From a virus, in UHGV virus genome UHGV-0116964: DNA of 41,926 bases. The stretch is one strand, 5' to 3'. A program made the position numbers and the translations under genes. A model generated the notes under the pieces. The model had not been told where the DNA came from. It was given only the letters and a program-made list of their open reading frames with translations, and made no database searches. Below are positions 28,896 through 33,381 of this stretch, piece after piece. Positions within the stretch are counted from its first letter, which is position 1. Each line of letters starts with the position of its first letter.

Positions 28896-30056
28896 ATGAC
28901 GCAGGGCTTACCTGTATCCAACGTTGTAAACGTTGATGTGATCATCTCGCCGAAAGCGGCTACTGGTCGTAACTTCGGCGCGCTGCTGATCCTCGGTTCT
29001 TCCACTGTCATTCCGGTGCAGGAGCGCGTTCGCCTTTATGCGTCCGTTGAGGACATTGGCGAGGACTTCGGAGTCGACAGCCCGGAATATGAAGCGGCGC
29101 AGGTTTTCTTCAGCCAGTCGCCGAAGCCGACGCAGGTTTATGTTGGCCGCTGGGCGAAGACGCTGACCTCTTCCGAAGGTGGAAGCGTGGAAACCATCGT
29201 GCAAGCTGTTAATGCCTGCCTGCAGTATACCAACTGGTATGGGCTGGTTGTCGCTGATGATGTTGCTGATGGCGATGATGTGCTTGATGCTGACGACGTG
29301 ATTGAGGTTGCTAAACTCATCGAAGCGTCCAGCCTGAGCCGCATTTTCGGGGTAACGTCAGCCGACGCTGAGATCATCAGCACGACTTCGACGACCGATG
29401 TTGCGTCTAAATTAAAGGCCGGTAAGTATACCCGTACCTTTATTCAATATTCCACCAGCAGCCCTTATGCGGCGGTTTCAGCTTTCGGTCGCGCGTTTAC
29501 TGTCAATTTCAACGGCAGCAATACTACCATTACCCTGAAATTCAAACAGGAACCGAGCGTAACCTACGAAACGCTGACGGTAGGACAGGCGGCGGCTGTG
29601 GATGCGAAGAATGCGAACGTGTTCGTGTACTACGCCAACGACACGGCGATCCTGCAACAGGGTGTCATGGCGAACGGTGACTTCTTCGACGAGCGCCACG
29701 GGCTCGACTGGTTGCAGAACTACGTTCAGACCAACCTCTATAACCTGCTTTACACCAGCACCACCAAAATTCCGCAGACTGATGCCGGTGTGACCCGTCT
29801 GCTTTCCAACGTTGAACAGTCCATGGATCAGTCCGTCACGAATGGTCTGGTAGCGGCTGGCGTGTGGAATGGTGGCCCTATCGGACAGCTGAATTCCGGC
29901 GATACGCTGACCAAAGGCTATTACGTGTATGCGCAACCGCTGTCCGAACAGGCGCAGGCCGACCGCGAAGCGCGCAAAGCACCGTTAATCCAGGTGGCCT
30001 GTAAGCTGGCTGGCGCAGTTCATTATGCCGATGTGCAGATCAACGTGGTTCGCTAA
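28896..30056 (+). CDS. Tail sheath protein (putative)
   Basis: 386 aa; first gene of the sheath-tube-chaperone-tape measure order. Confidence 0.55.
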
Positions 30057-30066
30057 GGAGCGATAA

Positions 30067-30507
30067 ATGGCAACTTATTCTTTTCTCGATGTAACCGCGT
30101 CGCTCACCGGGCCGACCGGAGTTATCGATCTTGGTCAGGGTTCTGCGAACTCTGAGGAAGGTATCACCCAGACTATGGGCGGCAACAAGAACACCATGAC
30201 CATCGGTGCCGATGGCGAAGTGATGCACAGCCTGCACGCCGATAAGTCAGGCACCATTACGGTGACGCTGCTGAAAACCTCCCCGGTGAACAAGAAGCTG
30301 TCTCTGGCGTATAACGCGCAAAGCCAGTCCTCTGCCACCTGGGGAAATAACGTGATCGTCATTCGCAACACGGCATCGGGTGATATTTCTACTGCGCGTT
30401 CGTGTGCATTCCAGAAACAGCCTGATTTCAATAACGCCAAAGAGGGCGGAACCGTAGCCTGGGTATTCGATTGCGGCAAGATTGACCAGCTGCTCGGGGA
30501 GTTTTAA
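30067..30507 (+). CDS. Tail tube protein (putative)
   Basis: 146 aa, directly after sheath. Confidence 0.5.
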   Translation: MATYSFLDVTASLTGPTGVIDLGQGSANSEEGITQTMGGNKNTMTIGADGEVMHSLHADKSGTITVTLLKTSPVNKKLSLAYNAQSQSSATWGNNVIVIRNTASGDISTARSCAFQKQPDFNNAKEGGTVAWVFDCGKIDQLLGEF

Positions 30508-30510
30508 CGC

Positions 30511-30936
30511 ATGGAATTCGAAATTAAAGGCGTGAAATATCGCACCGCAAAGCTCAGCGTTTTCGAACAGCTGAAGGTGTCCCGAAAGCTGTTGCCGGTG
30601 CTGGCCGGGATGGTTTCTGACTTCCGGAGCGTTCAGGAGAAGATCAGCAGCAAAGACACCGAAGGCGCGATGGCTACCATCCTGCCAAAGATTGCCAATG
30701 CTGTGTCCGATCTGAGCGATGGCGACGTTGACGCTATCCTGTTCCCCTGCCTTTCCGTTGTTTCACGCGAGCACATGAAAGGCTGGGTGCCGGTCTGCCA
30801 GCATGGCGAAATGGCGTTTGACGATATCGACCTGCTGACCATGCTGCAACTGGTGGCGCGGGTGGTCGCCGACTCGCTGGGAAATTTTTTGCAAGGACTC
30901 CCTACCAGCGAGACGCCCACCCCGCCAGCGGAATAA
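30511..30936 (+). CDS. Tail assembly chaperone (short form)
   Basis: 141 aa; slippery heptamer near the 3' end with an open -1 frame downstream. Confidence 0.5.
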   Translation: MEFEIKGVKYRTAKLSVFEQLKVSRKLLPVLAGMVSDFRSVQEKISSKDTEGAMATILPKIANAVSDLSDGDVDAILFPCLSVVSREHMKGWVPVCQHGEMAFDDIDLLTMLQLVARVVADSLGNFLQGLPTSETPTPPAE

Positions 30937-31124
30937 CCTTCAACAGCCTGCCGGGCGGTGAAGACTTTATTCTTCGTCCGGCGCTTGCCTTCCATATTGA
31001 CCAGAAAGACCTTAACAGCGGTGCGGTAGACCTCTGCCGTATCGCGCTTCTCAATGACTACCTCGACATGCGCGAGGATAACGACGCCCGGGTAGATAAA
31101 TGGAGAGCGGCCAATGAGCGGTAA
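30882..31124 (+). other. Programmed -1 frameshift site (A_AAT_TTT) and -1 frame extension of the chaperone
   Basis: Heptamer AAATTTT at about 30882..30888; the -1 frame is open from there to a TAA at about 31122, with no start codon of its own until near its end. Confidence 0.5.
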
Positions 31125-33381
31125 CGCAGATACGATTAAAGACTTCCTTGTTTCGCTGGGATTCGATATCGATCAGGCTGGCGCTAATAAGTTTGAAGCC
31201 GTGCTGAAAGGCGTTACCGCAAACGTTCTGAAGGTCGGCGCGGTGGTGGAAGGCGCAGCGCTGAGCATTGTCGGATTTACCACCCAGATCGCGAATGGTC
31301 TGGATAAAATTTACTGGGCATCCCAACGGACGGGGGCCAGCGTCCAGGGCATCAAAGCGCTGGGCTATGCCGCGTCGCAAACCGGTGCCAGCGCCGAGTC
31401 GGCCATGTCCTCCCTCGAAGGGCTGGCCGGTTTCATGCGTAGCAATCCGGGGGCGGAAGGCTTCCTGAACCGTCTTGGTGTCCAGACCCGAGATGCCAGC
31501 GGAAAGATGCGTGATACTGCGGCCATCTTTACTGGCGTTGGGCAAAAGCTCAACAACATGCCGTATTACCGCGCGAAGCAATACGCGCAGATGCTTGGCA
31601 TCGATGAAAACACGCTGATGGCGATGCGGCGCGGCATGAATGGCTTTACCGCCGATTACCAGTCTATGCTGCAAAAGACTGGGTTCAACGCTGATAAGGC
31701 GGCTGTGCAGTCCAATAAATTCATGACGTCCATGCGCGGGCTTACGTCGCTGTTCGGCATTATGCGGGACAAGATCGGCTCAAACCTCGCTGGTGGTCTT
31801 GCTGGTTCGCTGGACAGCCTGCGGCGGCGCATCCTCGACAACTTCCCGAAGATTGAAGAGACGCTGACCAGAGTTATTAAAGGCGTGATCTGGCTTGCGA
31901 ACGCCTTCACGCGAATGGCGTGGCGGCTCATACAGGGCGCTGGCTCTGTCATTGACTGGTGGAAGCGTCTTGACGATGGCAGTAAAAATCTGCTGAAAAT
32001 ATTCGGTGCTCTACTTGTCGCATGGCGTCTGCTTAATTCTGCGTTCCTGAAATCCCCGATTGGAATTATCACCACGCTGATTCTGGCGATCGGATTACTC
32101 TATGACGATTATCAGACGTGGAAAGAAGGCGGTAAAAGCCTGATTGACTGGTCCAAGTGGGAGCCTGCAATAGAAAAGGCGAAAAAGGCAATTCTCTGGC
32201 TGCGCGATAAGCTTCTGGGGCTGAAAGATTCTGTTGGTGGATGGCAGAACTCGCTGGAAATTTTGGCTACTTTCATCGCTGGGGTATGGGTAACAAAAGT
32301 ATTGGGAGCATTCGCAAAAATATCCGGTCTTCCGATACCTCCATGGCTTAAATTATGGGGAGCGTATGCTGGTTACCTGGTTTCAGATCGTGAAAACATA
32401 AAAGCCAGTGCTAAATCATCTTTGGACTATACCAAAAGGAACATTGGTGATGCTCTTGCTACGGTTGGCATCAAAACCGACCTTGGGCGAAAAGATGTTA
32501 GCGAGGTAAGAGAATGGCCCGCATGGATGGATTGGCTGCATGGTGGCCCAGGTAAGATTATTCGTCAGGCGCAAAGCAATGGCGTCGTTTATGGCGATAA
32601 TGTTCAGCCTGACATTCCCGGGGCGGAACAGCATGTTCGTAGTAATGAAATTGCCCCGCATGAAAGAGATGAAATAAAAAACCGTCAGCAGGCTGCTAAT
32701 GGTTATCTTGAAAAAATCTCAGACGGGATTGCCAAAATCGGTAATTTATTTTTCTCCCCGGCTGGAGCTGCTGAAATCTCTCCAAATATATCGGGTGACC
32801 CCTCCCAGTTTGCGCAATCAGTCAAACGTCCACAGGCCACAGCCCAGGGCAAAGTATTGCTCGACTGGATGGGGCCAATGTTCAATAAACTTGAGTCGCT
32901 TTATCAACTTCCAGCTGGTCTATTGAAAAGTGTGGCGATAACCGAGTCAGGTGGTAACCAGTTCGCCATGTCCGGCGCGGGTGCAAAGGGGCTGTTCCAG
33001 TTCATGGATGGCACGGCGCGAGACATGGGCCTGCGTGGTAACGATGTGTTCGACCCGGAAAAGTCAGCTCAGGCAGCCGCTAAGTACCTTAGCCAGCTAT
33101 TGCGGCAGAACGGCGGAGACCTTAGCAAAGCACTTGCATCATATAACTGGGGAATCGGGAACGTTCAACGTTATGGAATGGGGCTAATGCCGCAGGAAAC
33201 GCGCAATTACATTCCGAAAGTAATGAGCAATATGCCCACCAGCGCCCCGGTGATTCAGCAGGAAACGAACATTAACATCCACGGCGTTTCCGATCCTCGC
33301 GAAGCTGCCCGTTTGACTGTTGACCGTCAAAAGGGTGTGAATTCACAGTTAACCCAGCAACTCCCCGCAGGACCGAGATAA
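31114..33381 (+). CDS. Tape measure protein with C-terminal lytic transglycosylase (SLT) domain
   Basis: 755 aa; ESGGNQFAMSGAGAKGLFQFMDGTARDMG is an SLT catalytic motif. Confidence 0.75.
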   Translation: MSGNADTIKDFLVSLGFDIDQAGANKFEAVLKGVTANVLKVGAVVEGAALSIVGFTTQIANGLDKIYWASQRTGASVQGIKALGYAASQTGASAESAMSSLEGLAGFMRSNPGAEGFLNRLGVQTRDASGKMRDTAAIFTGVGQKLNNMPYYRAKQYAQMLGIDENTLMAMRRGMNGFTADYQSMLQKTGFNADKAAVQSNKFMTSMRGLTSLFGIMRDKIGSNLAGGLAGSLDSLRRRILDNFPKIEETLTRVIKGVIWLANAFTRMAWRLIQGAGSVIDWWKRLDDGSKNLLKIFGALLVAWRLLNSAFLKSPIGIITTLILAIGLLYDDYQTWKEGGKSLIDWSKWEPAIEKAKKAILWLRDKLLGLKDSVGGWQNSLEILATFIAGVWVTKVLGAFAKISGLPIPPWLKLWGAYAGYLVSDRENIKASAKSSLDYTKRNIGDALATVGIKTDLGRKDVSEVREWPAWMDWLHGGPGKIIRQAQSNGVVYGDNVQPDIPGAEQHVRSNEIAPHERDEIKNRQQAANGYLEKISDGIAKIGNLFFSPAGAAEISPNISGDPSQFAQSVKRPQATAQGKVLLDWMGPMFNKLESLYQLPAGLLKSVAITESGGNQFAMSGAGAKGLFQFMDGTARDMGLRGNDVFDPEKSAQAAAKYLSQLLRQNGGDLSKALASYNWGIGNVQRYGMGLMPQETRNYIPKVMSNMPTSAPVIQQETNINIHGVSDPREAARLTVDRQKGVNSQLTQQLPAGPR

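Follow-up and report, generated by a model that had tools for sequence, protein, structure and literature searches.

The tail assembly chaperone gene and its -1 frame

The virus genome UHGV-0116964 (41,926 nucleotides, hereafter called the window) carries a contractile-tail module on its plus strand, with the order sheath, tube, G, T (which has no called gene), tape measure, and then Dit-like, plug and hub proteins. In this study, the tail assembly chaperone gene, G, and the -1 reading frame that extends it towards the tape measure gene, T, were analysed computationally. Frameshifting of the G/GT type in tail chaperone genes is a textbook kind of feature (Xu, Hendrix & Duda 2004), and a first-pass annotation, made from the letters of the window, had proposed such a -1 frameshift at this position. 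The features of the locus, with lengths in nucleotides (nt) or amino acids (aa), are as follows:

30511..30936, plus strand: G, the tail assembly chaperone, 0-frame product (141 aa, 15.4 kDa); Pfam Phage_TAC_15 (PF21822), PHROG 1688 'tail assembly chaperone'
30860..30865, plus strand: GGGTGG, Shine-Dalgarno (SD)-like, a possible stimulator, judged by anti-SD pairing and CGG codon use
30879..30891, plus strand: slippery run G_GGA_AAT_TTT_TTG, 13 nt, made of three overlapping in-phase X_XXY_YYZ heptamers that start at 30879, 30882 and 30885
30882..30888, plus strand: A_AAT_TTT, the middle heptamer of the run, in X_XXY_YYZ phase, named in the first-pass annotation
30885..30891, plus strand: T_TTT_TTG, the core heptamer; T_TTT_TT[G/A/T] is in phase in 66/66 non-redundant loci
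30891..31124, plus strand: T, the -1-frame extension, 77 codons after a slip at T_TTT_TTG and then TAA at 31122-31124; PHROG 4364, 4.1e-17
31002..31109, plus strand: DUF6889 domain in T; Pfam PF21829, 2.1e-11
30511..31124, plus strand: GT, the predicted frameshift fusion (204 aa, 22.7 kDa), a constructed sequence that matches both Pfam domains

The match of G to Phage_TAC_15 reached 114.9 bits (gathering cut-off 22; E 4.4e-33) over residues 6-128, and that of the -1 frame to PF21829 reached 43.8 bits (gathering cut-off 23.9) over residues 61-96 of its translation from 30822. NCBIfam held no model for G or T, other T-domain Pfam families (e.g. P2 GpE) gave no matches to T up to E = 10, and a literature search on DUF6889, Phage_TAC_15 and their accessions found no papers.

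Near its 3' end, G reads CTG GGA AAT TTT TTG CAA in the 0 frame, with GGA at 30880-82, which places A_AAT_TTT in the slippery phase. From 30822, the -1 frame runs for 100 codons until it reaches the TAA at 31122-31124; re-indexing showed no earlier stop, and 80 sense codons were counted from 30882. This frame covers the 177 bp between G and the tape measure gene in which no open reading frame (ORF) was called (30937-31113), and its stop falls 11 nt inside the tape measure ORF, which begins with the ATG at 31114. Within 30822-31124, the -1 frame has a single ATG, GTG or TTG codon, namely, the ATG at 31068, which precedes the stop by 18 codons. The first-pass annotation had described the heptamer near the chaperone 3' end, about 79 open codons beyond it, the unassigned 177-bp gap, an end just inside the tape measure gene and the lack of a start codon until near that end, and the codon reading bore out this anatomy.

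The bare heptamer TTTTTTG is not beyond chance, with 11 occurrences in the window where 9.8 are expected. The arrangement does go beyond chance: the 13-mer GGGAAATTTTTTG occurs once in the window, with 0.12 copies expected. In 12 structural genes with 4374 codon positions in total, 0.34% of the positions carry in-phase heptamers, and the triple run is the sole case of its kind. The open -1-frame stretches of the 12 neighbouring genes (n = 252) have a mean of 16.5 codons and a maximum of 84, compared with 100 codons at this locus.

A slip at either of the first two heptamers would join the two frames as GNFFAR, whereas a slip at the third would give GNFLAR. The predicted tryptic peptides across the junction are VVADSLGNFLAR for a slip at T_TTT_TTG and VVADSLGNFFAR for a slip at A_AAT_TTT or G_GGA_AAT.

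Conservation of the slippery run and its surroundings

A total of 153 loci were compared, namely, the window and 152 relatives from GTDB genomes, IMG/VR and one phage record, in which T was placed by tblastn; thinning to <95% nucleotide identity left a non-redundant set of 66 loci. Relative to G, T occupies the -1 frame in 152/153 loci, at identities down to 49% for G and 47% for T. Every locus has a -1 frame that can be followed back without a stop as far as the slippery run, and in nearly all loci 79 codons separate the slip from the T stop (range 77-84). Beyond the G stop, the column entropy by T-frame codon position was 0.77/0.65/1.42; this variation, dominated by the third position, indicates purifying selection on a translated frame. 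The -1-frame peptide ARTPxQRDA, encoded in the interval from the slip site to the G stop, is also conserved.

The single locus with T out of the -1 frame is L028 (Enterobacter sp. R1(2018), ~1960-1975), in which the slip motif is intact and a 5-nt duplication, CCGGC, breaks the T frame. The break reflects either decay of the prophage or an error in assembly; the apparent +1-frame T of this locus is explained by the duplication inside T and not by a different recoding mode.

All three heptamers are kept in 110/120 distinct loci. Codon use within the run was set against a background, taken as the share of each codon among its synonyms in the same genes: GGA was found in 64/66 non-redundant loci (8% background), AAT in 64/66 (40%), TTT in 66/66 (52%) and TTG in 64/66 (12%). 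The codons at -3 to -5 from the run vary freely (Ser as TCG, TCA, AGC, TCT or AGT; Asp as GAT or GAC), and the divergence among the loci is therefore enough to randomise neutral sites.

Two lineages help to tell the heptamers apart. The run reads GGT AGT TTT TTT in L032 (Limnobaculum) and GGT GAT TTT TTG in L061 (Rosenbergiella), and both A_AAT_TTT and G_GGA_AAT are missing from these loci, in which a -1-frame stop (TAG or TGA) stands immediately 5' of the T-run. Because these stops abut the T-run, T_TTT_TT[G/T] is the only -1 site that would join G to T in every lineage. On this comparison, the indispensable slip core is predicted to be T_TTT_TTG (30885-30891), 3 nt downstream of A_AAT_TTT. 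The near-frozen synonymous positions of GGA and AAT imply that selection acts on more than the T-run; coding in either frame does not explain them, because the -1 codons upstream of the slip would never be decoded. The upstream heptamers, including A_AAT_TTT, therefore probably contribute as well. The first-pass proposal of A_AAT_TTT as the slip site stood in part, as this heptamer is in phase and probably contributes, but T_TTT_TTG is the only one of the three present in every lineage. A systematic survey in E. coli (Sharma et al., PMC4066793 and its supplement) placed A_AAU_UUU in the efficient H_HH.U_UU.Y class, and with the IS3 pseudoknot A_AAU_UUU gave 11.4% and U_UUU_UUG 0.77% (PMC4066793).

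Natural variants of the run were also observed. In protein P0004 (L154 1897-1910, Logan SRR23924998), T7 stands in place of T6, so that G and T are in frame in a product of 213 aa, and its junction, GNFFA, is exactly the predicted fusion junction. The T7 run may reflect either a genuine mutant that makes GT constitutively or a sequencing error in the homopolymer. Two further proteins, P0001 and P0110, look like comparable indel variants with an earlier shift.

The first-pass annotation had suggested looking downstream for a stem-loop or pseudoknot, and no conserved structure was found there. The single-sequence fold of 30892-30990 (99 nt) gave a z-score of -1.9, with 8/200 shuffles as good, and the first substantial stem in the window lies 16 nt from the heptamer, compared with 5-9 nt for a dnaX- or IS-type signal. 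Across the 66 loci, the per-locus folds had a mean z-score of -0.30, and RNAalifold on 23 diverse sequences gave essentially no consensus (-0.37 kcal/mol, 3 pairs). A conserved downstream stem-loop or pseudoknot was rejected on these results.

Upstream of the run, the best anti-SD duplex located 4-20 nt from the T heptamer had a mean of -7.75 kcal/mol (65 loci), compared with -3.69 kcal/mol for equal-sized blocks elsewhere in the same genes. The Arg codon within the SD-like element is CGG in 44/66 loci (67%) against 7% in the background, and the element also encodes a conserved RVV. Lineages that lack GGTGG tend to carry GGGGA(G) or GGAGA nearer the run. In the window, a second G-rich SD-like stretch, GGTGG, lies nearby at 30852-56. 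The upstream GGGTGG may help the slip, a reading that is confounded by the conserved RVV peptide and by the shared ancestry of the loci.

The proposed frameshift and its alternatives

We infer, with a probability of about 0.9, that a -1 recoding event fuses G and T by programmed ribosomal frameshifting in the chaperone gene. The G/GT-type reading of the first-pass annotation agrees with the position of the gene, the overlap of the chaperone 3' end with a -1 ORF that has no initiation codon of its own, the slippery signal, its conservation, the coding signature of T and the precedent of Klebsiella phage Mulock described below. Most ribosomes would translate 30511-30936 and release the 141-aa G, and a minority would move one base back on G_GGA_AAT_TTT_TTG and continue to the TAA at 31122-31124, thereby making the 204-aa GT. 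The core slip would take place on T_TTT_TTG, with tRNA-Phe in the P site and tRNA-Leu in the A site. Further chances of slipping into the same frame would probably come from the two heptamers upstream, with near-identical products (GNFFAR and GNFLAR at the junction). No downstream RNA structure would be involved, and the upstream GGGTGG may assist.

The triple run could, if this account is right, be given a further reading. Tentatively, the composite multi-site G3-A3-T6-G run, possibly together with the upstream SD-like GGGTGG, might be a distinct, structure-free design. If so, a lambda-like GGGAAA would be fused to a P2-type TTTTTTG and would offer three successive codon pairs that lead into the same frame, and a useful GT:G ratio would be obtained from individually very weak heptamers without a downstream RNA structure.

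In the predicted GT, a flexible linker would connect the G fold to a helical T domain that contains DUF6889. This layout was modelled on P0004, a 60%-identical natural in-frame G-T variant used as a stand-in for the GT of the window, and the mean predicted local distance difference test (pLDDT) score was 84.7. The G domain (residues 1-137) was mostly confident, with pLDDT dipping to 77-84 over residues 31-70, and the T domain formed three helices at a pLDDT of ~90. The linker (139-156) was disordered and began two residues beyond the end of a helix, just downstream of the slip site. The roles are taken by analogy from lambda gpG/gpGT and P2 E/E+E': the tape measure protein would be covered by G and by the G part of GT, whose T domain would bring in the tube protein. 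The efficiency of the slip would fix a low GT:G ratio, and neither protein would be expected to end up in the virion.

Several points weigh against a ribosomal frameshift at this locus. The case for the slip here comes from sequence analysis, and the conservation counts are inflated by the shared phylogeny of the related loci. The lack of a conserved downstream structure leaves the slip efficiency unexplained. The SD-like element overlaps the codons for the RVV peptide and lies 13-19 nt from the heptamers, a spacing at or beyond the optimum found in work on dnaX and IS911. The heptamers themselves are weak, since without a stimulator UUUUUUG gave 0.118% and AAAUUUU 0.070% in E. coli, close to a background of ~0.055% (PMC4066793).

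Transcriptional slippage would yield the same protein, with the error in the mRNA and not on the ribosome: RNA polymerase would add an extra U on T6 (30885-30890), and some mRNAs would encode G-T in frame. The homopolymer run is indeed the one invariant element of the signal, and the T7 variant at the DNA level suggests that polymerases can slip here. A survey also noted that stretches of U7 and A7 are under-used in all frames, possibly as a result of such slippage (PMC4066793). T6 is short for this mechanism, as transcriptional slippage in bacteria is usually efficient at runs of ~8-9 residues or more. It also leaves the freezing of GGA and AAT into heptamer phase upstream of the T-run unexplained, and the identical site of phage P2 has been described as translational. 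Overall, transcriptional slippage appears very unlikely as the source of GT.

The second alternative treats T as a separate small gene for a free DUF6889 protein of ~60 aa, which would be started at a non-canonical codon (ATA 30933) or by termination-reinitiation at the G stop. RefSeq annotates T in this manner, Hafnia phage yong1 is annotated with a 58-aa ORF, and some relatives have an ATG or TTG 51-90 nt past the slip site, a few of them with an SD-like sequence. These start-like codons are not conserved in position, are often absent for at least 165 nt after the slip and are accompanied by no conserved ribosome-binding site; in the window, no ATG, GTG or TTG occurs in frame before 31068, and the lengths of the called ORFs are ragged (42-75 aa). 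In addition, the -1 frame has no stop between the slippery run and T in any locus, it opens exactly at the run in the two lineages with abutting stops, and ARTPxQRDA is conserved upstream of the G stop. An independent start as the main route to T was rejected on the lack of a conserved start codon or ribosome-binding site, and a separate gene is accordingly rated as highly improbable. Coincidence of an open -1 frame with a heptamer, with G as the only product, could appeal to the ordinary frequency of bare TTTTTTG in the window, but is effectively refuted by the matches of the -1 frame to Pfam and PHROG families, the frame, length and motif kept across 153 loci, the coding periodicity and an open stretch longer than all 252 such stretches in the neighbouring genes.

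Known systems, neighbouring genes and annotation of the family

The closest precedent for a ribosomal frameshift at this locus is Klebsiella phage Mulock (MN098327.1, CPT_Mulock_014/015), a true homologue with ~67% nucleotide identity over the locus. Mulock shares with the window the TTGGGAAATTTTTTG motif, the gene order and a T stop that overlaps the tape measure start, and its homologue is annotated as a two-piece joined coding sequence (CDS), 'tape measure chaperone frameshift product'. The frameshift in Mulock is an annotation only, and the genome announcement is silent on it.

In the FETUD operon of P2, a contractile-tail phage of E. coli, the chaperone gene E/E+E' lies between the tube (FII) and tape measure (T) genes, as in the window. 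P2 makes E+E' from E by a proven -1 shift at T_TTT_TTG (Christie et al. 2002 and Xu et al. 2004, cited in PMC3091744), and a downstream structure is reported to be absent (PMC3091744). The slip site is marked in the RefSeq record of P2, and the sequence there reads GGT TTT TTG. The P2 heptamer is identical to the core heptamer of the window, lies ~20 nt before the 0-frame stop and leads into an extension that ends inside the tape measure gene. The two loci differ in that P2 has a single heptamer and the window the G3A3T6G triple run, E has 91 aa and G 141 aa, and the SD-like GGTGGTCG of P2 lies 4 nt upstream of TTTTTTG, compared with 13-19 nt in the window. Homology of G to E+E' was not demonstrable (hhalign E 0.2 over 14 columns), and P2 serves as an analogy only.

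Phage lambda has a non-contractile tail and belongs to an unrelated sequence family. The lambda heptamer is G_GGA_AAG, the first six bases of which are the same as those of G_GGA_AAT in the window; the lambda A-site codon, AAG (tRNA-Lys), is far shiftier in E. coli than AAT. In lambda, the tape measure protein is bound and coated by gpG and by the G part of gpGT, and the tube protein is bound by the T part; gpG and gpGT are made at a ratio of ~30:1, neither is present in the virion, and the efficiency in P2 is 2- to 3-fold above that of lambda (PMC5009743).

A further case concerns the TAC-N/TAC-NC proteins of Pakpunavirus/Vandenendeviridae and Andersonviridae, for which a -1 event was argued at a poly-T, GTTTTT, at the 3' end of TAC-N (PMC12846349, 2025). 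That locus also has a conserved stop-free -1 frame, and its downstream ORF is routinely misannotated as a separate hypothetical gene (PMC12846349). These phages are lytic, infect Pseudomonas and other hosts, and carry GTTTTT where the window has AAATTTTTTG; by tail architecture, they look related to the window.

The genes on either side of the chaperone locus are consistent with a contractile tail, as follows:

28896..30056, plus strand: tail sheath gene (386 aa); Pfam DUF3383, 5.7e-104; PHROG 205 'tail sheath', 6.6e-129
30067..30507, plus strand: tail tube gene (146 aa); Pfam KPP10_Orf10, 5.8e-60
31102..31107, plus strand: GGAGAG, ribosome-binding site of the tape measure gene, in the context GATAAATGGAGAGCGGCCAATGAGCG, within the conserved KWR motif of T
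31114..33381, plus strand: tape measure protein (755 aa); PHROG 2276, 7.2e-220

In the Logan contig L154, the homologue of the tube protein carries the label PF11681 Phage_Tube_PhiTE, and the name in RefSeq is DUF3277. Phage KPP10, the namesake of the Pfam family of the tube, is a Pakpunavirus. As the ribosome-binding site of the tape measure gene is embedded in the KWR motif of T, part of the conservation of KWR may stem from this constraint. The C-terminus of the tape measure protein contains an SLT lytic transglycosylase domain (residues 589-689; Pfam 1.2e-24), and the tail thus presumably breaks down peptidoglycan as the phage enters the cell.

Citrobacter phage Omnitron (CP115737.1, 41,923 bp) has 99.8% identity to the window over 30400-31250. 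A query of 28896-33381 matched Omnitron at 99% identity over its first 2.7 kb, and the tape measure gene diverges after ~31630. Given the near-equal lengths of the two sequences, the window probably represents the complete genome of a temperate myophage from this group. The Omnitron record carries no annotation. The locus was matched by 119/5426 complete E. coli genomes, 37 of them at >=95% identity (prophages, 98-99%).

RefSeq, through PGAP, gives T as a separate 63-aa 'DUF6889 family protein' CDS with an ATA start at 30933 that overlaps the chaperone stop. This CDS spans 30933-31124 in the window and 2034-2225 in L153, and among the E. coli prophage matches listed, all 12 records are annotated in this way. 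In other databases, T appears as ragged fragments of 42-75 aa, many of which are named 'lytic transglycosylase', apparently by contagion from the neighbouring SLT-bearing tape measure protein. The frameshift predicted here is missing from public annotation of the sequence. Features of this kind are well known, and in Mulock the shift is already annotated for the same gene family.

The finding changes no concept, and its main value lies in annotation, for a prophage family that is common in Enterobacteriaceae. Recognition of DUF6889 as the frameshift-encoded C-terminal domain of the Phage_TAC_15 chaperone would give this domain a concrete role and allow the records to be corrected. The locus would also provide a well-conserved natural case of a P2-type T_TTT_TTG set in a triple run without a downstream structure, thereby offering a possible test case for how weak heptamers gain useful efficiency in bacteria.

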